A DNA stretch of 16,345 bases, taken from Clostridiales bacterium. GTDB lineage: Bacteria; Bacillota; Clostridia; Oscillospirales; Oscillospiraceae. The notes under the pieces are model-generated. The model was not told where the DNA came from. It made no database searches and saw nothing but the letters and a program-made list of their open reading frames with translations. The position numbers were made by a program, and so were the translations under genes. Of this stretch, positions 1-13,523 are shown piece by piece. The DNA lies in NCBI GenBank assembly GCA_021200895.1, contig JAJQFX010000088.1:1-16345 (forward strand). Reading direction: 5' to 3'. The first letter of the stretch is position 1, and each line of letters opens with the position of its first letter.

Positions 1-2000
1 ATGTTGGCGACTTCGGCGGTCAGGTCGGTAAACGCCGCGCTGTCCGCGGTCAGGTAGCCTGCCTCCACGAGGATGGCCGTCACATCGCTGGCCGTCACAA
101 ATCCGGCCACAAGCTTAGTGACCTCCGCCCGGTAGGCGGTCAGGTCATTGACCGTGGCATAGTTGGCGGACAGATACTCAATGGTGGCGTAGCTTGCCAG
201 CATTGTATTGATGTCCGCTACGTCCGCTTGCAACTCTGTGATGGCCGCGCTGTCCGCCGTCAGGTAGCCCGCCTTCACGAGGATGGCATCTACTTCTCCG
301 GCGGTGACATAGCCGGAAAGCAGCTCAGTAATGTTTGCCTGGTAGGCGGTCAGGTCATTGACCGTCGCATAGTTGGCGGACAGATACTCAATGGTGGCGT
401 AGCTTGCCAGCATTGTATTGATGTCCGCTACGTCCGCTTGCAACTCTGTGATGGCCGCGCTGTCCGCCGTCAGGTAGCCCGCCTTCACGAGGATGGCATC
501 TACTTCTCCGGCGGTGACATAGCCGGAAAGCAGCTCAGTAATGTTTGCCTGGTAAGCCGTCAATGTGGCGATTGTGGCGTAGTCTGCCAGCAGGGTGTCA
601 ACGGCTGCTACGGTGATGTAGGCGGCTTCGATTTCGGCAACGGTGGATTGCAGGGTGGCGATGGTAGCAGATGCTGCCGTGAGGTCATTGATGGTGGCAT
701 AGGTCAGCTTTGCATTGTCCGCCGTGAGGTAGCCAAACGCGGCCACCTCCGCCTCCAGGCTGTCCGCCTTGACGTAGAGGGCGGCGATGTCATCCGCTGT
801 GATGTATTTGGCGGTCAGATAGTCCGTGGTGATGGCGGTCGCCACCAGGTTGGTGTACCGTGCAGACAGCGATTCCAGCGCCGTCTGGACGTTCCGGTCA
901 GAGCTGCGCTGAGCATCCGTCAAACTGGCCGAATCCGCCCCAAAGGTCAGGGTGTCGTTGGCCGGGTCAAGGAGGTCAATGTCCATGGCAGTCAGCTCGA
1001 CATACTGATTGATGCCGTGGGGGTCGCTCCGAATCAGCACATAGTCCCCCAGGTTGATGTAGTCATACTCCGCCGACACCAGGGCCAGGTCTACCGCGCT
1101 GACCTCAAAGGAGGACACGGCGGAAGTGACCTGCGCCAGGTAGTTTTTCGCCTTGGTCAGCAGATTGCTGGCCTCCGTCACATCCTCCCAGATGTTGCAG
1201 ACCACGATCCAGCCGTATTCCGCTACGGCGGCTTCGTCGGCGTAATAGATGCTGCCGCCGTTGACGCTGGAGATGGTGAGGTATTCATCTGTCTGGTTGC
1301 CGTCGCTGTCCTCCAGCTTCGCCCCCAGGGGGAGAATGACCGTTGCCAGGTCGGAATACTCCACGTTCTGCGCGATGTCCAGCAGGTTCACCCCGAACTC
1401 CACCGGCTGGGTGGCGGTGGTGCCGTAGCTGGCCAGGTAGTCCAGATACTTGACCCCGTCCACGATGCGCACCCGGAAGTAGCCGCCCAGGCTGTCGTTC
1501 ACCAGTTTGTCGGTCAGGACGGTCAGGGTGCGGTTATACTCGATGCTGCTGCGGGCGATATAGTCGTTGCTGTCCTCCACGGTGACGGTGCCGAGGCGAA
1601 GCTGCTTGCGCTCCTCTACCTGGGCGTTGTGGTTGTCCAGGACAGACTGCAAAAAGTCTGTAGGACTGCCGGAGAACTCGAAGGGCGGGTAATAGGTATC
1701 ATACAGATAGGCCAGCACGCCCTCGCAGGTGAGCGTGCCGGTCTTGTAGAAATCCTCCTGCCGGGTGATGGCCCGGCCCCGCCACAGCTCCACCCCGTCC
1801 CGGTAGACGATGAGTTCATCCGTCAGGCAGACGAAATCCGCCTTCGCCGGGTTTGCGTCCGGGATGGAGATGGACAGCTCCCCCGCCGCGCCCACCTCCA
1901 GCGAGAGGGAAGCGGCGGTGAGGCAGTAGGCGGTGTCGCCGGGGCGGTAGAGGGGGTTTTCCGTTGTTTCATCCTTATGAATAAACTTGATTTCGTACAT
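1..2000 (-). CDS. Tail-associated protein / tail fibre (Tal-like N-terminal domain followed by a 70-aa-repeat fibre region); 3' end runs off the window
   Basis: Absent from the ORF track because there is no stop in the window. Minus-strand ATG at 2000-1998 is preceded by AGGTGA (2010-2005). I translated the frame by hand and it stays open for all 666 codons down to position 3. The product starts MYEIKFIHKDETTENPLYRPGDTAYCLTAASLSLEVG...LIVYRDGVELWRGRAITRQEDFYKTGTLTCEG..., which resembles the N-terminus of siphovirus 'phage minor structural protein / prophage tail endopeptidase' (Tal) proteins. It sits directly after the TMP and Dit genes. Confidence 0.85.
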   Translation of the reverse strand, partial: MYEIKFIHKDETTENPLYRPGDTAYCLTAASLSLEVGAAGELSISIPDANPAKADFVCLTDELIVYRDGVELWRGRAITRQEDFYKTGTLTCEGVLAYLYDTYYPPFEFSGSPTDFLQSVLDNHNAQVEERKQLRLGTVTVEDSNDYIARSSIEYNRTLTVLTDKLVNDSLGGYFRVRIVDGVKYLDYLASYGTTATQPVEFGVNLLDIAQNVEYSDLATVILPLGAKLEDSDGNQTDEYLTISSVNGGSIYYADEAAVAEYGWIVVCNIWEDVTEASNLLTKAKNYLAQVTSAVSSFEVSAVDLALVSAEYDYINLGDYVLIRSDPHGINQYVELTAMDIDLLDPANDTLTFGADSASLTDAQRSSDRNVQTALESLSARYTNLVATAITTDYLTAKYITADDIAALYVKADSLEAEVAAFGYLTADNAKLTYATINDLTAASATIATLQSTVAEIEAAYITVAAVDTLLADYATIATLTAYQANITELLSGYVTAGEVDAILVKAGYLTADSAAITELQADVADINTMLASYATIEYLSANYATVNDLTAYQANITELLSGYVTAGEVDAILVKAGYLTADSAAITELQADVADINTMLASYATIEYLSANYATVNDLTAYRAEVTKLVAGFVTASDVTAILVEAGYLTADSAAFTDLTAEVAN
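131..554. repeat. Tandem direct repeat, 2 x 210 bp (131-340 and 341-550), inside the tail-fibre CDS; a diverged third unit lies at 1-130
   Basis: Base-by-base comparison gives 209/210 identical positions. The single difference is g156 versus c366, which is synonymous on the coding strand (GCC/GCG Ala). Identity continues 4 nt further (341-344 = 551-554). Positions 1-130 align to 211-340 at roughly two-thirds identity. The 210-bp period equals 70 codons, so the repeat is in frame. Confidence 0.95.
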
Positions 2001-2008
2001 ATGATCAC

Positions 2009-2431
2009 CTACAAGGAGGTATTGCCGCTGGCATCCGTTTTGAGCGGATTGCACTTGCACAGGATGGTGATACTCTGACTTGCGCTTGTGTTGGTAAAGC
2101 TGTCAATGGTGCACCTGCCGTTGTACGTCCACTCGGGGTCATCATCAAGGACGATGCCCAGCCGCTGACCGTGGATGGCGGTGGCAATTTCGCTTATCAT
2201 GTCCGCCCACCCCTTTTGCGTCAGTGCCTCTGCGGTCTGAAAAGAAAAGGACAGCTCCCTGTCCTCGTAGACCACAGAGCCGGTCAGGGCCTCCGTCAAA
2301 TCTAACGACCCATTTGCGCCTGGAATATCAATGGTGTTCGTTTTCGGTGCAGGTATTGAAACGTCCTGCGCCTGCAAAACCAGCTTCCAATCATCCCAGC
2401 TGTGATATGAACCGAATTTAACGCCTTTCAT
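2009..2431 (-). CDS. Distal tail protein (Dit)-like, short form (140 aa)
   Basis: ORF track entry. The ATG at 2431 overlaps the TMP stop (ATGA) and has AAGGAG 8 nt upstream. The N-terminus MKGVKFGSYHSWDDWKLVL... resembles siphovirus tail-component (Dit) N-termini. Its position between TMP and Tal is the canonical Dit position. Confidence 0.7.
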   Translation of the reverse strand: MKGVKFGSYHSWDDWKLVLQAQDVSIPAPKTNTIDIPGANGSLDLTEALTGSVVYEDRELSFSFQTAEALTQKGWADMISEIATAIHGQRLGIVLDDDPEWTYNGRCTIDSFTNTSASQSITILCKCNPLKTDASGNTSL

Positions 2432-7897: not shown

Positions 7898-8788
7898 TCA
7901 GGCGCTGACGATTTTGGCGAAGGCAGTCGCGTCCAGGATGCCGATACCGTAGACGATTTCGGCGCGGATCGCCAGCTGGTTCTGGCGCTGGAGGTCGCCC
8001 AGCCCGTCAGGGTCGCCGTACTCAATCATGTGAGCGGCGATGGAACGCTGAACGCCCCACCGGAACGCGTCGAACTGGCCGACGATGCCCAGCAGATTGG
8101 ACGCCACAGCAATCTCATTCTTGGCAGAGACGGTGTCGCTGACGGCGGCGTTCATTCCGAGGAAATTGGTAATGTTCTGGCCGAAGCCGATGTCGGTATA
8201 AATCTTGCGGCCAGTGGTGTCCCGCATGGTGGACAGGCCGAAGGACAGGGTCGGGTCCATGGCGATTCCACTGGGGGTGTAACCGGCGGAGATAACGGTT
8301 CCTGCGGCGGCCTCGATGGCTTCATCATAGGCGGTTCCGTCCAGGGTGACGCTCTGGGTGGTGTCAATCAGCCCTTCGGCCACCAGAGAGGAAACCTCGC
8401 CGGTCAGGGGGTTGATTTTGTGGATGCCAACGAGGTCGAGGGCGCGGCCCAGCGCAATGCCGGCATTGGAGGACAGGTCCTGCAGGACGCCGATCTGCGT
8501 GTCCTCGTCGGCCCACTTGACCTCCTGAGAGAACCGCATAGTGACCTGCAGCTTGAGCGGGGTGATGGTCTTGCTGGAATAGGCGGCAGGGGTGGGGGGT
8601 TTCTGCACCGCTTCGCCGACCAGTTCGGCCTTGGGCGCAGAGGTCAGGACCCAAACCTGCTGGGTGCCGAATTTCTGCGGACGGGCGCCGGACGGCTGGG
8701 CGAGGGTGGAACCCTTCTGCGCCTTTTCAAAGATGCCGGTGGCGATGTCGTTAGGGATGTTGAAGTCAGTGGTGATTAAGGCTGCCAT
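7898..8788 (-). CDS. Major capsid protein (HK97 fold, no delta domain)
   Basis: ORF track entry. AAGGAG lies 10 nt upstream of ATG 8788. The 296-aa product follows a scaffold gene, and its C-terminal motifs (...FRWGVQRSIAAHMIEYGDPDG...LAIRAEIVYGIGILD) resemble HK97-family capsid proteins. Confidence 0.9.
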   Translation of the reverse strand: MAALITTDFNIPNDIATGIFEKAQKGSTLAQPSGARPQKFGTQQVWVLTSAPKAELVGEAVQKPPTPAAYSSKTITPLKLQVTMRFSQEVKWADEDTQIGVLQDLSSNAGIALGRALDLVGIHKINPLTGEVSSLVAEGLIDTTQSVTLDGTAYDEAIEAAAGTVISAGYTPSGIAMDPTLSFGLSTMRDTTGRKIYTDIGFGQNITNFLGMNAAVSDTVSAKNEIAVASNLLGIVGQFDAFRWGVQRSIAAHMIEYGDPDGLGDLQRQNQLAIRAEIVYGIGILDATAFAKIVSA

Positions 8789-8793
8789 GATAA

Positions 8794-9210
8794 TTAGTCT
8801 CCTTTACCAAAAATTTGTCGTGCGAACTCTCGCATTGCCGCATCGCTCTGCGAGGTTGCGCTGCTGTGGTTTGCTTTTGTGCCCGGATAACGTTTCGGCC
8901 TGGCGAACTCGATGATTTTCTCCGCGTATGCCTTGCAGGATTCCTCATCATCGCCAACCAGCAGTTCCACCGGAACGCCCGTCTCTTTTGAGACCGCAGA
9001 GCGCATCTGATTGATGCTGTTGGTGGTTTTCAGCTGGTTCAGTTCCGCCTGCAGGCTTTCCGTCTGCCCGGCCTTTTCCTTCAGCGCATCATAGTCGGCG
9101 TACTTTTTCTTTTCATCCGCCAGCCGGCTCTTGATGATAGCGTCCAGTTCCGCCTGCGTGAATGTGCGTTCGGCCTGCTCCGGGGCCTGATTGGTTTCCG
9201 TGTTTTCCAT
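8794..9210 (-). CDS. Capsid scaffolding protein (DUF4355-like)
   Basis: ORF track entry. AAGGAG lies 9 nt upstream of ATG 9210. FTQAELDAIIKSRLADEKKKYADYDALK is the typical DUF4355 scaffold signature. The protein is coiled-coil rich and sits just upstream of the capsid gene. Confidence 0.85.
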   Translation of the reverse strand: MENTETNQAPEQAERTFTQAELDAIIKSRLADEKKKYADYDALKEKAGQTESLQAELNQLKTTNSINQMRSAVSKETGVPVELLVGDDEESCKAYAEKIIEFARPKRYPGTKANHSSATSQSDAAMREFARQIFGKGD

Positions 9211-9284
9211 AGTTTCTTACTCCTTCATTTTTACGGTATGAATGACCTGAACCCTCGTTTGAGGCACGAGTTGCCGTTTTTTGT

Positions 9285-9310
9285 ATGAAAAAAGCACCCG
9301 GTGGGTGCTT
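9285..9310 (-). terminator. Rho-independent terminator (minus-strand orientation)
   Basis: The minus strand reads AAGCACCC-ACC-GGGTGCTT followed by TTTTCAT. That is a perfect 8-bp GC-rich stem (9292-9299 / 9303-9310) running into a T6 tract. Confidence 0.7.
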
Positions 9311-9332
9311 CAATCAACGTGTTTGGATTTTA

Positions 9333-9356
9333 CATTTTGTTGGGGTCAACAAAATG
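9333..9356. repeat. Perfect 10-bp inverted repeat with a 4-nt spacer (CATTTTGTTG-GGGT-CAACAAAATG)
   Basis: Read directly from the sequence. It lies between the two terminators in an AT-rich intergenic region. Its function is unknown; it could be a hairpin or a dimeric protein-binding site. Confidence 0.6.
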
Positions 9357-9376
9357 GTTTATGTGTACGTTTTTGG

Positions 9377-9414
9377 GGCATAAGAAAAGCACGGCGGTTT
9401 CCCACTGTGCTTTC
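9377..9414 (-). terminator. Probable rho-independent terminator directly after the small ORF
   Basis: The minus strand reads GAGAAAGCAC-AGTGGGAAACCGCC-GTGCTTT-TCTTAT. The outer stem is 7 bp (9386-9392 / 9407-9413), with some extra inner pairing and a T-rich 3' side. The loop is long, so confidence is moderate. Confidence 0.5.
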
Positions 9415-9627
9415 TCAGTTTACAAATGTTAGCGTCTGCCCGGTGTAGTCATGATTTCCATCAACCGAAATCCAATAATCATTATGTGTAAACATATACG
9501 GTATACGGTCATTGTTAATCATAACATACTTGTTTCGATATTCGGCGGAAGGAATAGCTCGGTCTAATGCTAAAACCGTCTTTCCATTAACAGGAAATGA
9601 TTCCCGGATTTTATATGATTCTGACAT
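9415..9627 (-). CDS. Small AT-rich protein of unknown function (70 aa; 73 aa if started at 9636); candidate immunity protein for the upstream MuF C-terminal domain
   Basis: The track ORF is 9415-9636. ATG 9627 has AGGGAG 9 nt upstream and starts one nt after the MuF stop codon (TGAtATG). The alternative ATG 9636 overlaps the stop by 8 nt. Hand-counted GC is 28-42%. I recognise no family. Confidence 0.6.
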   Translation of the reverse strand: MSESYKIRESFPVNGKTVLALDRAIPSAEYRNKYVMINNDRIPYMFTHNDYWISVDGNHDYTGQTLTFVN

Positions 9628-9628
9628 A

Positions 9629-10711
9629 TCATCCATCTCCCTTCATCATTTCTTCCAGTTGAGCCTCATATTCAGCAAGGTTTGCCCTTGTGACTTCTGT
9701 TTCTTCTACAGGTATTTTATATCTTTTTGCAGAGTTTAGCAAGTAGTTCTGAGCATCTATTTCACGTCGCAAACGCATTTCTTCATACTCACGATTGTTA
9801 TATGCTCCTGTTCTGTCCTGCTCCGCATGATACATCTCCTCAAGCACATCTGAAATGGTTGCATCATCTCTTATGATTGCCGTATCCGCGCCTACTATGT
9901 AAGAAGCATATGCACCAACAGTTTTCAAATGCTGCTCTGCTTCCTCACCCCGGATAATAATGCCGCCGCGCCGCAGGAAATCCCGTGTCAATTTGTTATA
10001 TGTTGCCTTGTCAATGATTTCCTGTCCCTGTTCCCCGATTTTGCGGCGCTTCGTTTCAGCTGTCAAGCTTCTTCGCATGGAATTTAACTTTTCCTGCGGC
10101 GTACTCCCTTCGGCGTTGTCATACATCTCCTTGTATTTATCCGGGTCATACCCTTCCACCGTACTTTTCCCATCAAACCGCACCGCATACTGGCAGTCAC
10201 AGTTCGCGTGGATATGTTCCGCGTGGCCGTTCTTCAACGCTTTCTTTGACATATACTGCCAGCCTCTGGACGCCAGCATCAGGCAAAAGGCGCAGGAATC
10301 GCCATGCGGGACCCAGGCGAACTGCGCGCCGTCCCGCTGTGCGTTCTTCAGCGTGGTGTCCGCCCCGACCTGCTTCACAAGCCGCCCGACGGTGGATGGA
10401 ACCAGCTTTTCAGACTGCTTCTTTGCGCCGTTGACCGCTTTCGCTACCTCGCCGTATTCCGGCGTGGCCGCCGCCTCTGCCGGGTTCACGGTGACGCCCT
10501 GCGCCGCCGCTGTGGCCTCATACATTTGGCAGGCAAGGGCGCCGATAGCGCTGCCGTAGCGTTCGGAAAGCGCATAAGCATAATCCAGCATGGCACTGCT
10601 GTCGGTGAAGCCGTGTTTATTCACCCATTCCTGCATCTTGTCCGCCGCTGTCTGGCTGATTTTCGACATTTGGCTGATGTACTGATTCCACGTCTTCGCC
10701 GTTATCCGCAT
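9629..10711 (-). CDS. MuF / SPP1 gp7-like head morphogenesis protein with an additional C-terminal domain of about 150 aa and unknown function
   Basis: The track ORF 9629-10717 starts with TTG. I prefer ATG 10711, which has GAGGAG 7 nt upstream. The gene follows the portal gene. The motif WVPHGDSCAFCLMLASRGWQY...HAEHIHANCDCQYAVRF matches the Cys/His-rich end of MuF/gp7-type proteins. About 150 residues then follow in markedly lower-GC DNA. Confidence 0.8.
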   Translation of the reverse strand: MRITAKTWNQYISQMSKISQTAADKMQEWVNKHGFTDSSAMLDYAYALSERYGSAIGALACQMYEATAAAQGVTVNPAEAAATPEYGEVAKAVNGAKKQSEKLVPSTVGRLVKQVGADTTLKNAQRDGAQFAWVPHGDSCAFCLMLASRGWQYMSKKALKNGHAEHIHANCDCQYAVRFDGKSTVEGYDPDKYKEMYDNAEGSTPQEKLNSMRRSLTAETKRRKIGEQGQEIIDKATYNKLTRDFLRRGGIIIRGEEAEQHLKTVGAYASYIVGADTAIIRDDATISDVLEEMYHAEQDRTGAYNNREYEEMRLRREIDAQNYLLNSAKRYKIPVEETEVTRANLAEYEAQLEEMMKGDG

Positions 10712-12089
10712 TTCCAAACTCCTCTAACAGGATTTGCTCGCCTTTCGCCCTCTGCTCCTGCGCTTTAATGCGCCGGATGTCCGCCTGGTCGAATCCTATC
10801 ATCTCCAGGAAAATATCTGTGCTCGCAAACCCCTCTCTTGCTGATGCGATTTTAATTGCCGCGTCCGCTGTTTCCGCTACGGACGGCATGGCAGGATTTT
10901 TAAAATGCGCTACAATGCTCTTTTCGTCGTCCGGCAATTCGTCCGGCGTGGTGCCGTATTCGATGGCAAGCGCCATCTGGCTGATTTGGTAGAGCGCATC
11001 ACCGTTAGACTTATTCAGCTGCTCCGCCATGAGAATCAGCGACTGCGACTGTGCGAGGATTGCCTCGCTGGAGGTGGGGTTTGCGTCGTTGATCACGCCC
11101 GTGTCGGTCACGGTCAACCCGGTAGCGGCAGAATACTGGGTCGCCAGCATTCTCAGCATCTGGACGTGCGGCTCGATACTGCCTTGCGGCAGCTGCCCGA
11201 ACGTGGGCTTTTCGCCCGTTTCAGGATTTACAGTTCCCAGCAGGACGGAGCCAACATACTGCTTGAATTTCTCGTCAACAAGCTGGTCGTACTGCTCATC
11301 CGTGACACCCAGCAGATATTTTTGCGGGCTGGTTGCAAATTCGAGGCCAATGGTGGCGTTTGCCACTGTCCTGACATAACCCTGTATCAGCCGCCGGACA
11401 GGTTCTTTCAGCCGTGACTGGCCGAACGGTTTATCACTTGTGGCATCCCAAACAAGAGGAACCATCAAAGGGCATCCGAACTGATGCGGGAACCTTGTGG
11501 CCTCCCAACGGCCCCCCGTCCGGTCTAACTGCCAAATGTCAGTGTCCGTGTAGAAATTGACGTGTTCCGGCGACCATGTCACGTCGGATTCATCTTTTCG
11601 GGCGTCCTCAAAGGCGAACCCACAGCCGATTCTGCCCTTTTGCCCGTCCCACAATGCTGCCGCAGAATGAGGGGAATAAAAGCGGATTTTCGCATTGCCA
11701 GGCTCGCCGGATACCGCCGCAAACGCGGAACCGTATTTCAGCTCCTCTTTGCAGGCTTTCGTGTATTCAGCAATCAGGTGATTCCGCTGGATGATGTCGT
11801 TCATCTCATCCGCGTCCGCACCGTTCTGGCCAACAAAGCCGTCAAACATAGACCTCGCCGCCAGAACATCAACGGTTTTCGCGCCCCATGCGCACCCAAC
11901 CTCGAGACGGCCAAAGCCGTTAGGCAGAGCAATCCCGAGGTTTACCTCGGCAAGGGTGATTTTGCCGTTGTAGTACCGCCGTTTTGTCCGGTTGGACGAT
12001 TTGTGGAAGTCGTATATTTCTTTCAGTTCAGCCAGTTTCCTGTGCTCCTCTGGCGGGAGGCCGTCTACATATCCGAAATTCAGCTCCAT
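10617..12089 (-). CDS. Portal protein (SPP1 gp6-like)
   Basis: ORF track entry, 490 aa. GAGGA lies 9 nt upstream of ATG 12089, two nt after the terL stop. The N-terminal ...RTKRRYYNGKITLAEVNLGIALP... and the overall size and position fit gp6-type portals. The C-terminal tail is acidic and low in complexity. Confidence 0.9.
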   Translation of the reverse strand: MELNFGYVDGLPPEEHRKLAELKEIYDFHKSSNRTKRRYYNGKITLAEVNLGIALPNGFGRLEVGCAWGAKTVDVLAARSMFDGFVGQNGADADEMNDIIQRNHLIAEYTKACKEELKYGSAFAAVSGEPGNAKIRFYSPHSAAALWDGQKGRIGCGFAFEDARKDESDVTWSPEHVNFYTDTDIWQLDRTGGRWEATRFPHQFGCPLMVPLVWDATSDKPFGQSRLKEPVRRLIQGYVRTVANATIGLEFATSPQKYLLGVTDEQYDQLVDEKFKQYVGSVLLGTVNPETGEKPTFGQLPQGSIEPHVQMLRMLATQYSAATGLTVTDTGVINDANPTSSEAILAQSQSLILMAEQLNKSNGDALYQISQMALAIEYGTTPDELPDDEKSIVAHFKNPAMPSVAETADAAIKIASAREGFASTDIFLEMIGFDQADIRRIKAQEQRAKGEQILLEEFGNADNGEDVESVHQPNVENQPDSGGQDAGMGE

Positions 12090-12090
12090 G

Positions 12091-13230
12091 TTATCCTATC
12101 CTCATTTTCCTTTTGGGATCGCGTTTCGATGTTCTGCAGCCCCACAGGGCAAGTGCCGCCGCTTCTATCGGGGTAGATTGACTGCCGCCAAACCCCCAGC
12201 CGCCGGAAATTGGCCGCTTGATGGAAGTAACGGCACTTTCCTCAAGGTCTGCCTGATATTGATACCATGTGACCGTCTGCTCTGTGACCTCGTTTGCAAG
12301 CTGGCTCGCCGCCGCAATCACATCCTTGGCGGACGGACGCACGATGGAATTTTTGAACTTCCATGTGCCTTTGATTTTATCTATCAAAAAATCAACGCCG
12401 TTTTTGCCGTCAATCACGACACATGACGCCTCCATATATCGCTGATTCAGCCAATCGGCAAGCCATTGGATTCCCTCGCTGGTTCTCCGGCGGTCAATCA
12501 GCGATACTCGTGCCAATCCGTCAACAGGGCAAACGGCACCGCAGAGGGAAACCTCCGAACCGTCAAGCGAGAATTTGACGCCGTAAGCGGTTTTACCCTC
12601 TGGCTTCTTTTCCTCTGACGCGCACGCCTCCCATTGGTCTTTTGGGATGGCATAGTCCTCATCATTGCCAACCTCCGACCACCAGCCGAGGCGTTCTCTG
12701 GCAAAGGTATCCGCGTCCATCTGCTGCAATTCGCCCTCAATGGTGCTTTCACGGATTCTGCGTCCCAATGCAGGGTTTGTTGCCGCCCATCTGGAACGGT
12801 CGGCAATGTTGCCTATTTCCTCAACGGAATACTCTGTCCATGCGGTTGTTTTGTTCTCGCCACTCAGCGTTTTTGCTCTGATTCGGCGGAACACATCGCC
12901 TGTGCAATTCTCGTCTGGTGGGGTTCCCAGGCAAATTGTCTGCGGATTTCGCGACGCAGAAATGGCAGGAATAAACGATGCCTGCTGGTCAGAGGTCAGT
13001 TCCTGCGCCTCGTCAAAAATCAGCGTATCACCATGCAGGCCGCGCCCTCCGTTCCTCGTTCGGGCCACGAACATCACCCTTGCGCCATTTTTTAAGAGCA
13101 CCTGCTCTCTGCCGAGCGCATTTTTTTCTCTTTGACGTACTTTTTCAAGCCGGGCGTTTCCAACAGGGCTTTGATTTCCGTGAAGGTCTCTGTGGCAGTC
13201 TTTTGCAGATGGGCGGTATAAATGACCCAT
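12091..13230 (-). CDS. terL: Terminase large subunit, C-terminal fragment (Walker B and nuclease part); frame-disrupted gene
   Basis: ORF track entry. It contains LIFDEAQEL (Walker B-like) and a long downstream nuclease-type region. Only the sequence downstream of about 13125 looks like genuine terminase (EKNALGREQVLLKNGARVMFVARTRNGGRG...). The first ~35 codons of the track ORF are out-of-frame overlap with the N-terminal fragment. Confidence 0.85.
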   Translation of the reverse strand: MGHLYRPSAKDCHRDLHGNQSPVGNARLEKVRQREKNALGREQVLLKNGARVMFVARTRNGGRGLHGDTLIFDEAQELTSDQQASFIPAISASRNPQTICLGTPPDENCTGDVFRRIRAKTLSGENKTTAWTEYSVEEIGNIADRSRWAATNPALGRRIRESTIEGELQQMDADTFARERLGWWSEVGNDEDYAIPKDQWEACASEEKKPEGKTAYGVKFSLDGSEVSLCGAVCPVDGLARVSLIDRRRTSEGIQWLADWLNQRYMEASCVVIDGKNGVDFLIDKIKGTWKFKNSIVRPSAKDVIAAASQLANEVTEQTVTWYQYQADLEESAVTSIKRPISGGWGFGGSQSTPIEAAALALWGCRTSKRDPKRKMRIG

Positions 13231-13523
13231 TCGTTATAAAGAATCATTCCTGCGACGATTCTGCCCGCTGTGATACAGGTTTTCCCGTTCTGGCGGGGAA
13301 CAGACAAGCCACAGGTCTTTGCCGCCCAACTGTCTGCATCTGCCCGGCACATCCAGTCCCGCAGCAGGTTCCTCTGCCACGGGTCAACAGTCAGACCGCC
13401 GACCGCAAGAATCGTTGCAGCGTCATCGCCGTCAGTGTACTCATATTGGGGGCATATCCTAACGGACGGCGTCTGACTTCCCATCAGCGTGTCTGGCTGA
13501 CAACAACTCGCCGATTTTGTCAT
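13092..13523 (-). CDS. terL: Terminase large subunit, N-terminal fragment (Walker A); frame-disrupted gene
   Basis: ORF track entry. It contains GLSVPRQNGKT (Walker A). The frame ends at TAA 13092, about 10 codons after an A7 run (13121-13127). The start is uncertain: ATG 13523 or ATG 13484, both overlapping the upstream ORF. Confidence 0.85.
   Translation of the reverse strand: MTKSASCCQPDTLMGSQTPSVRICPQYEYTDGDDAATILAVGGLTVDPWQRNLLRDWMCRADADSWAAKTCGLSVPRQNGKTCITAGRIVAGMILYNEWVIYTAHLQKTATETFTEIKALLETPGLKKYVKEKKMRSAESRCS

Follow-up and report, generated by a model that had tools for sequence, protein, structure and literature searches.

We analysed a 16,345-nucleotide (nt) stretch of DNA from a Clostridiales bacterium of the Oscillospiraceae (contig JAJQFX010000088.1; the whole stretch is hereafter called the window), whose minus strand carries a siphovirus-type morphogenesis module with the gene order terminase-portal-MuF-like-small ORF-scaffold-capsid, tail tube and tape-measure genes being further members. 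The small open reading frame (ORF), which directly follows the gene for a MuF-like minor head protein, probably encodes the cognate immunity protein, or inhibitor, for a polymorphic toxin of the MuF family, the toxic part of which would be the C-terminal domain (CT) of the MuF-like protein. Four observations carry this reading: the anatomy of the locus, the strict linkage of the two genes across contexts, their exchange as one cassette, and small ORFs left intact beside decapitated toxin remnants. Coordinates are collected in Table 1.

The small ORF (9415-9636, minus strand) encodes 73 amino acids (aa) from ATG 9636, or 70 aa from ATG 9627. The MuF stop codon (TGA, 9631-9629) is separated from ATG 9627-9625 by a single nucleotide (t9628; TGAtATG), and a Shine-Dalgarno-like AGGGAG precedes this ATG with a spacer of 9 nt; the alternative ATG 9636 gives an 8-nt overlap with the MuF ORF and zero spacer to the Shine-Dalgarno-like motif. 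A first-pass annotation, made from the sequence alone, had claimed translational coupling from these same features, and its reading of them matches the sequence. ATG 9627 is the likely start, because homologues align from MSESY onwards. Across homologous loci the small ORF starts between -29 and +24 nt relative to the stop of the CT gene, which is consistent with translational coupling.

Linkage between the two genes was evaluated at 98 CT loci (14 obtained via protein look-ups, 27 from genomes, 56 from viral contigs, and the window), the genome loci including Oscillospiraceae, Eubacteriales, Selenomonadaceae, Ruminococcus albus and Roseburia. At about 83 of the 98, a significant match to the hidden Markov model (HMM) of the small-ORF family started within the above -29 to +24 nt of the CT stop. 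Among the remainder, L071 and L074 leave no room for a downstream ORF, and at the other loci, which belong to the most divergent CT branch, an ORF abuts the stop in every case (65-79 aa, one of 106 aa) and matches the HMM weakly. The linkage was independent of the N-terminal family to which the CT is joined (PF25310, PF04233, PF06152 or PF04327) and of genomic context, and extended to truncated copies in non-phage neighbourhoods. The small-ORF cluster P0138, represented in 458 collection blocks, always follows a CT-bearing PF04233 MuF in portal-MuF-X-Prp-scaffold-capsid modules. Furthermore, pairwise identities of CTs and of small ORFs were correlated (Mantel r 0.75, reached by 0 of 2000 permutations; 66 unique pairs), with the small protein diverging faster (about 32% identity where CTs are 50-60% identical).

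We compared the locus with 80 viral contigs that carry the same VG15-type N-terminus (50-77% identity). Neither the window CT nor the small ORF was found in any of the 80; at least 12 other CT types occur there after a conserved [IL]N[AS]MRR linker, among them ADPrib_exo_Tox (PF03496, E 2.6e-16), CdiA_C-like (E 1e-5), DUF6883, two HExxH types and a JAB-like type. Each of these precedes different small ORFs, and the scaffold gene follows at a variable distance of 270 to 2167 nt. The exchange itself was seen in sister contig L200, whose portal clusters with the window portal at 90% identity or above: by blastn, the two DNAs are 93-94% identical over window positions 13790-10071 and 9419-6649 only, and the 651 nt between these blocks have given way in L200 to 684 nt of unrelated sequence, with another CT and another small ORF, of 77 aa. 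The CT and the small ORF therefore form one exchangeable unit, and the spacer and hairpin downstream belong to the phage backbone. Comparison of sequences thus supports the proposal of the first-pass annotation that the small ORF confers cognate immunity to the CT, through the linkage, the absence from the 80 relatives and the cassette swap.

Base composition followed a similar pattern. The GC content and the GC content at third codon positions (GC3) were 0.44 and 0.39 in the MuF C-terminal core and 0.37 and 0.34 in the small ORF, compared with 0.58 and 0.74 at the MuF N-terminus, and GC3 values of 0.66 in the scaffold gene and 0.81 in the capsid gene. We counted the foreign composition of exactly the CT and the small ORF in favour of a toxin-immunity cassette. 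Earlier hand counts of 42% GC at 9421-9480 and 28% at 9481-9540 proved exact (0.417 and 0.283), and the contrast with the flanking structural genes was confirmed; the low-GC tract is nevertheless broader than had been stated, taking in the CT core, the small ORF and the 204-nt spacer 3' of it (GC 0.43). These data bear on the alternative that the small ORF came to lie after MuF by chance, as a moron or lysogenic-conversion gene in its own right, a proposal that would account for the atypically low GC, the hairpin after the ORF and the place outside the core head-gene synteny. We consider it extremely improbable, and the moron alternative of the first-pass annotation was not supported: the low-GC tract includes the CT, the start lies 1 nt past the MuF stop and not in a promoter-separated position, and the small ORF was never found with other CT types among the 80 relatives and was swapped along with its CT.

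The hairpin at the right junction has a folding energy of -18.5 kcal/mol (z -4.4; 0 of 200 shuffles as stable), and its stem is kept in L200, where the loop differs. The hairpin with a T-rich tract described earlier is thus real, but a terminator is no more than plausible: the U-rich tract UUUUCUUAU lies mostly inside the 3' arm, and a simple terminator scan of the minus strand did not call the structure. It is possibly a terminator or an RNA-stability element of the phage backbone. The spacer also contains a perfect palindrome with 10-bp arms (9333-9356; CATTTTGTTG-GGGT-CAACAAAATG), within the backbone block shared with L200; it could serve as an operator or terminator, or have a part in recombination.

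We then characterized the MuF-like protein and its CT. Residues 5-202 match PF25310 VG15 (Pfam E 1.4e-52) and PHROG 193, and are followed by the linker and the CT; VG15-type and PF04233-type proteins have a common H..NC.C motif in alignment and occupy the same genomic slot. Residues ~205-362 gave no Pfam match above threshold. The CT has 92 homologous clusters (40-66% identity), carried by PF25310, PF04233 (Mu F), PF06152 (minor capsid 2) or PF04327 (Prp) proteins or by short truncated proteins, and this occurrence on several N-termini is the kind of domain shuffling seen in the tips of polymorphic toxins. At L014 (1745-4435), a full PF04233 MuF gene (486 aa) is followed first by a separate 234-aa fusion of a PF04327 Prp-like cysteine protease to the CT and next by the small ORF; the CT is hence not confined to MuF-type carriers.

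The AlphaFold2 model of the CT was confident (predicted local distance difference test, pLDDT, 91), with a three-stranded sheet (strands 49-51, 67-70 and 75-78 in CT numbering), a helix at 84-99 bearing E89, E90 and H93, and a helix at 107-124 bearing E115. Across 78 sequences E90, H93, Q96 and E115 are invariant and E89 is present in at least 90%, within the conserved motifs LEExxHxxQ[DN] (MuF residues 293-300) and [RN]EI[DE]A (E115 being MuF residue 319). That invariant polar residues sit on a pair of adjacent helices is suggestive of an active site. Gluzincins, with thermolysin as the comparison, combine HExxH with a Glu about 20 residues downstream; the motif layout of the CT appears to be that of a gluzincin in which the first His is replaced by Glu. 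LEExxHxxQ was found in 65 of 66 unique CTs, the remaining one having LGE, and HExxH in none of the 66.

Three further results point to a toxin-like domain. Sub-threshold matches to PF15640 Tox-MPTase4 occurred in 28 of 78 CT members (best E 4.5e-5), with scores of 14.0 bits for the window CT (E 0.047), 15.0 for P0022 and 18.8 for P0060 against a gathering cut-off of 25 bits, and one member aligned over the full profile at 18.8 bits. Fold matches in BFVD beyond a true homologue were enriched in zincin-like proteins (IrrE-like, PolyVal-MPTase, SprT-like and 'peptidase' proteins, E 8e-3 to 0.4). In hhalign comparison, EEMYH was aligned with the HEMWH that another CT, from a sister phage, carries (E 0.002). 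From these three hints, each weak alone, the CT may be described as zincin-like and related to Tox-MPTase4, and not as a member of that family. Two other candidate assignments were rejected. Matches of the CT profile to gp41 coiled coils among PDB sequences were spurious, and an ADP-ribosyltransferase (ART) reading of the CT (R-S-E; IIRG ... ASY ... EE) fits poorly with the spacing, which is too short, with the helix-rich, three-stranded-sheet model and with the lack of any ART family match.

Three small-ORF lineages (P0145, P0193 and P0150) at first seemed independent of MuF, their upstream neighbours being an ADP-ribosylglycohydrolase gene, a gene for a DUF1016_N protein and divergent genes, respectively. 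Occurrence of the small ORF independently of this CT had been named in the first-pass annotation as evidence against immunity; we found that all three lineages keep a CT remnant directly upstream, in the form of a frame encoding the last 58-66 CT residues (E ~1e-20 to 1e-23), so that the outcome of this test favours immunity. These remnants start within or after the active-site helix, so that both glutamates and all N-terminal sequence are gone, and that of P0193 is fused to an unrelated N-terminus, whereas the small ORFs beside them are intact and full length. Retention of the small gene while the catalytic part of its neighbour is destroyed is expected of an immunity gene, and is hard to fit to a chaperone or structural partner.

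This result also serves to weigh the proposal that the small protein serves the CT as its own chaperone or adaptor, acting in CT folding or capsid entry, with the CT a structural or DNA-ejection accessory and not a toxin. Strict linkage and coupling are equally expected of a chaperone-client pair, the catalytic identity of the CT is not confirmed, and the small barrel fold described below is generic. Even so, we judge a chaperone quite unlikely: a chaperone without its client should decay, whereas intact orphans stand beside gutted CT remnants and in non-phage neighbourhoods; in sister phages, domains recognised as toxins (ADP-ribosyltransferase, CdiA_C) occupy the same slot; and the invariant polar residues on neighbouring helices point to an active site.

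Several neighbouring genes were recorded at the orphan loci and at the divergent CT branch. Some of the orphans (loci in Table 1) are followed on their own strand by at least one Cys_rich_CPCC (PF14206) gene and by further small ORFs (70-96 aa), an arrangement that resembles a heterogeneous polyimmunity array; at least three distinct genomic settings share the unit of CT remnant, small ORF and CPCC gene. P0145 is in every case preceded, at a distance of about 270 nt, by the gene for a 486-aa ADP-ribosylglycohydrolase (L106-L111, about 1274-2734). Enzymes of this type serve elsewhere as immunity proteins for ART toxins (PMC11699363), and the gene by P0145 may be another immunity-type gene of the same islet or a coincidence; as a pointer to an ART-type CT it was treated as coincidental, the ART reading having been rejected. 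At L011 (4970-5299), and also at L012 and L013, all of the divergent CT branch, two ORFs come after the small ORF, one of 109 aa with a match to PF21825 'Sequestin' and one of 66 aa, which could be additional neutralising or immunity-type genes of the cassette.

The small protein itself belongs to a family of its own. The window ORF matched no family in Pfam, PHROG or NCBIfam, including the curated immunity families (Pfam Imm*, SUKH, SuFu and others), and 65 members of its family gave no consistent match to Pfam. A word-indexed homologue search with the single ORF returned only itself, and the family was recovered via the neighbours of CT homologues, a full phmmer scan and a profile search. 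The exhaustive phmmer scan yielded 15 representatives of 68-75 aa and the profile search 105 clusters (55-100 aa), all of which lacked a Pfam domain and an informative name; with about 105 homologous clusters, the small ORF is a real gene. AlphaFold2 modelled the product with confidence as a beta-barrel of six strands and a single short helix (pLDDT 93, predicted template modelling score 0.80), in agreement with the earlier description of a beta-rich product matching no family. Foldseek of this model against PDB returned nothing significant (best E 0.058, generic small barrels), and the model lacks helix-turn-helix, ribbon-helix-helix and AbrB features. The window ORF is thus the founding member of an unannotated beta-barrel family of about 65-80 aa. 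Small beta-barrels are known as inhibitors of serralysin-family proteases: AprI/Inh plug the active site of the zinc protease, are periplasmic and eight-stranded, and have about 100 aa or more. The likeness, a small all-beta barrel encoded beside a zincin-type enzyme and proposed as its inhibitor, is an analogy only, with no sequence similarity or significant fold similarity detected between the window barrel and AprI/Inh.

Exact copies of the 70-aa and 73-aa products are recorded only from Logan assemblies, and the window capsid and portal are also in NCBI protein sets; the public annotation of the contig apparently omits the small ORF. A promoter-like site (9714-9742, minus strand; TTGCTA-17-TAAAAT, 9 of 12 consensus matches) lies within the CT-coding sequence, some 90 nt before the small ORF, in a region where such sites are enriched (8 observed, 1.7 expected). 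This site could allow expression of the small ORF independently of the late operon, but it is no more than a consensus match in AT-rich DNA.

Taken as a toxin-immunity pair, the locus would work as follows. The MuF-like protein consists of three parts, a conserved N-terminal virion-incorporation domain (VG15/MuF-like), the conserved ..NSMRR.. linker, and an exchangeable C-terminal candidate effector, the last being a zincin-like EExxH...ExxA domain of about 135 aa distantly related to the Tox-MPTase4 metallopeptidase toxins. The 70-aa beta-barrel would be made from the same late mRNA through translational coupling, and would probably bind and block the CT in the producing cell, possibly also in lysogens or in recipients into which the domain passes with the injected phage DNA. 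CT and small ORF move together by recombination, as a low-GC cassette reaching from the linker codons to the hairpin past the immunity stop. A different role for the same pair is conceivable though doubtful, namely that the CT is an effector injected with the phage DNA, a non-canonical EExxH metallohydrolase for takeover of the host or for harming non-lysogens, and that the chromosomal orphan barrels, kept beside decapitated CT remnants and at times in arrays with other small genes (Cys_rich_CPCC), are host 'vaccination' genes. If so, orphan barrels would blunt infection by CT-carrying phages, as a defence via captured phage immunity genes.

We also considered whether CT and small ORF form a selfish toxin-antitoxin or abortive-infection module, kept for addiction or defence, for which virion delivery is incidental. 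Pairs of truncated MuF-CT and small ORF do survive in chromosomal neighbourhoods free of other phage genes (L001, L002, L008 and L011), and the window element is possibly defective. Most copies, however, are in frame with a full-length MuF in intact portal-MuF-scaffold-capsid modules (56 viral loci; P0138 with its 458 blocks), and the stand-alone CT proteins keep fragments of the MuF N-terminus and so resemble prophage debris. With the toxin gene placed first and a small protein devoid of a DNA-binding domain, such a module is unlikely; its neutralisation mechanism would be the same as in the MuF toxin-immunity reading, the difference being only in what is selected.

A number of points weigh against a MuF toxin and its immunity protein. 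Throughout the family, Glu takes the place of the first His of HExxH, and the CT may therefore be something other than a peptidase, or lack catalytic activity; every individually checked Tox-MPTase4 match lies under the gathering score (the best E was not converted to bits); and Foldseek of the CT model against PDB returned nothing significant. Linkage by itself would make adjacent genes co-diverge to some extent. No CT remnant was detectable in two orphan lineages, at the P0114 loci L195 and L196 and at L111. The window element may be defective (split terminase, short Dit), and its present function in virions is uncertain. Finally, the toxicity of the CT, direct binding, a peptidase-type activity and the timing of expression are inferred.

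Table 1 Features of the MuF-like/small-ORF locus and of the orphan loci (window positions unless another locus is named)
Feature	Position	Strand	Basis or remark
Terminase	12091-13523	minus	two overlapping ORFs
SPP1-type portal gene	10617-12089	minus	family matches, gene order
MuF-like minor head protein gene, 362 aa from TTG 10717	9629-10717	minus	Pfam and PHROG
Left junction, linker codons N-S-M-R-R (..LNSMRR)	10070-10084	minus	junction alignment with L200
Exchangeable cassette, CT and small ORF, 651 nt	9420-10070	minus	L200 comparison
CT core, MuF residues ~227-362	9632-10039	minus	conserved alpha/beta domain, candidate zincin-like toxin/effector
EEMYH codons, MuF residues 293-297	9827-9841	minus	EExxH motif on predicted active-site helix
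Putative third ligand E319 (REIDAQ)	codon 9761-9763	minus	E115 in CT numbering
Shine-Dalgarno-like AGGGAG	9637-9642	minus	read from sequence; within last MuF codons
Small ORF, 70 aa, ATG 9627, stop TGA 9417-9415	9415-9627	minus	candidate immunity/inhibitor protein
Hairpin starting at small-ORF stop, right cassette junction	9381-9417	minus	RNA fold
AT-rich spacer, cassette to scaffold gene	9211-9414	minus	inside 94% identical L200 block 9419-6649
Scaffold gene	8794-9210	minus	
HK97-type capsid gene	7898-8788	minus	
Orphan/CPCC loci	L192 2719-3916; L194 423-614; L197 2806-2940; L198 1994-2185; L199 1702-1893		

Elsewhere in the window, the large terminase gene is divided between two overlapping ORFs (13092-13523, 143 aa; 12091-13230, 379 aa), and L200, 93% identical, has a single intact 473-aa terminase ORF (L200 290-1711); the split is a frameshift that reflects either a sequencing error or a defective prophage. 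After the tape measure, a 140-aa ORF (2009-2431, minus strand) has a match confined to the N-terminal portion of Dit (phrog_33, profile positions 48-166 of 651), no additional tail genes were found on the minus strand beyond it, and a convergent 616-aa ORF (228-2078, plus strand) belongs to no family of Pfam or PHROG; truncation of the tail module is possible. With the TTG 10717 start, the MuF-like ORF overlaps the 3' end of the portal gene by about 100 nt. Since the VG15 match begins at residue 5, either this long overlap or a slightly later MuF start is likely. Megablast of the whole window against GenBank phages gave no matches.

In CdiA and Rhs proteins, the demarcation motifs are VENN and PxxxxDPxGL. 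The window locus resembles CdiA-CT/CdiI and Rhs-CT/RhsI (PMC3482391, PMC5576092) in that toxin tip and immunity gene are exchanged as a unit at a short demarcation motif, and in that displaced or truncated toxin fragments are left beside intact immunity genes. It differs in delivery, in its demarcation by the [IL]N[AS]MRR linker, and in having orphans scattered in chromosomes and not in tandem behind the main gene.

The closest known system is that of the MuF polymorphic toxins, predicted by Zhang et al. 2012 (PMC3482391), of which about 20% carry metallopeptidase domains (Jamet et al. 2017, PMC5576092) and 89% have a small ORF downstream, proposed as an immunity gene (PMC5576092). As in the window, these toxins combine a conserved MuF-type N-terminus by the portal gene with a variable toxin CT and a small ORF directly downstream (PMC5576092), and the same CT is found on different MuF N-terminal families. 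In contrast to them, the window CT passes no Pfam model and has EExxH for HExxH, the N-terminus is PF25310 (VG15) and not PF04233, and the partner family of about 70 aa is unannotated. The boundaries at the NSMRR linker and the post-stop hairpin, and the orphans beside decapitated toxins, come from the present analysis and appear not to be described in the MuF papers. Tox-MPTase4 (PF15640), found in polymorphic toxins of Rhs and of type VI and type VII secretion systems, has a motif given as F[DN], [RK], HExxH, and no immunity families are given for Tox-MPTase1-5 (PMC3482391). The CT shares its size of about 130 aa, its alpha+beta fold class, its C-terminal position and, in one member, collinear alignment over the full profile; unlike Tox-MPTase4, it scores 14-19 bits against 25 in the members checked, has EExxH for HExxH, is carried by a phage head protein and not a secretion system, and has a candidate immunity partner, defined here. 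In the Bxa-Bsi (and BAH) system of a Bacteroides stercoris prophage (PMC11699363), a C-terminal enzyme is likewise neutralised by a small binding immunity protein encoded next to it, as is proposed here, and the Bxa N-terminal domain, like the window MuF, is common to many other toxin CTs; Bxa is, however, an ADP-ribosyltransferase from Bacteroidota, has two immunity proteins, one of them enzymatic, and shows no sequence relation to the window pair. What is new here is the specific pair, of which both families are unannotated, together with the non-canonical motif, the cassette junctions and the decapitated-toxin orphans.

MuF polymorphic toxins are widespread in prophages of gut Firmicutes, and few toxin-immunity pairs among them have been defined. 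The locus defines a clean pair of a zincin-like EExxH domain of about 135 aa and a beta-barrel of about 70 aa, which is well defined and tractable and is not a new principle. Both families comprise more than 90 sequence clusters each in gut and rumen metagenomes, have confident models, and are flagged for database curation. Together with the natural variants in which the toxin is deleted and the immunity gene kept, the pair makes it possible to test what the CT targets, how the barrel blocks it, and whether orphan barrels protect their hosts from matching phages.

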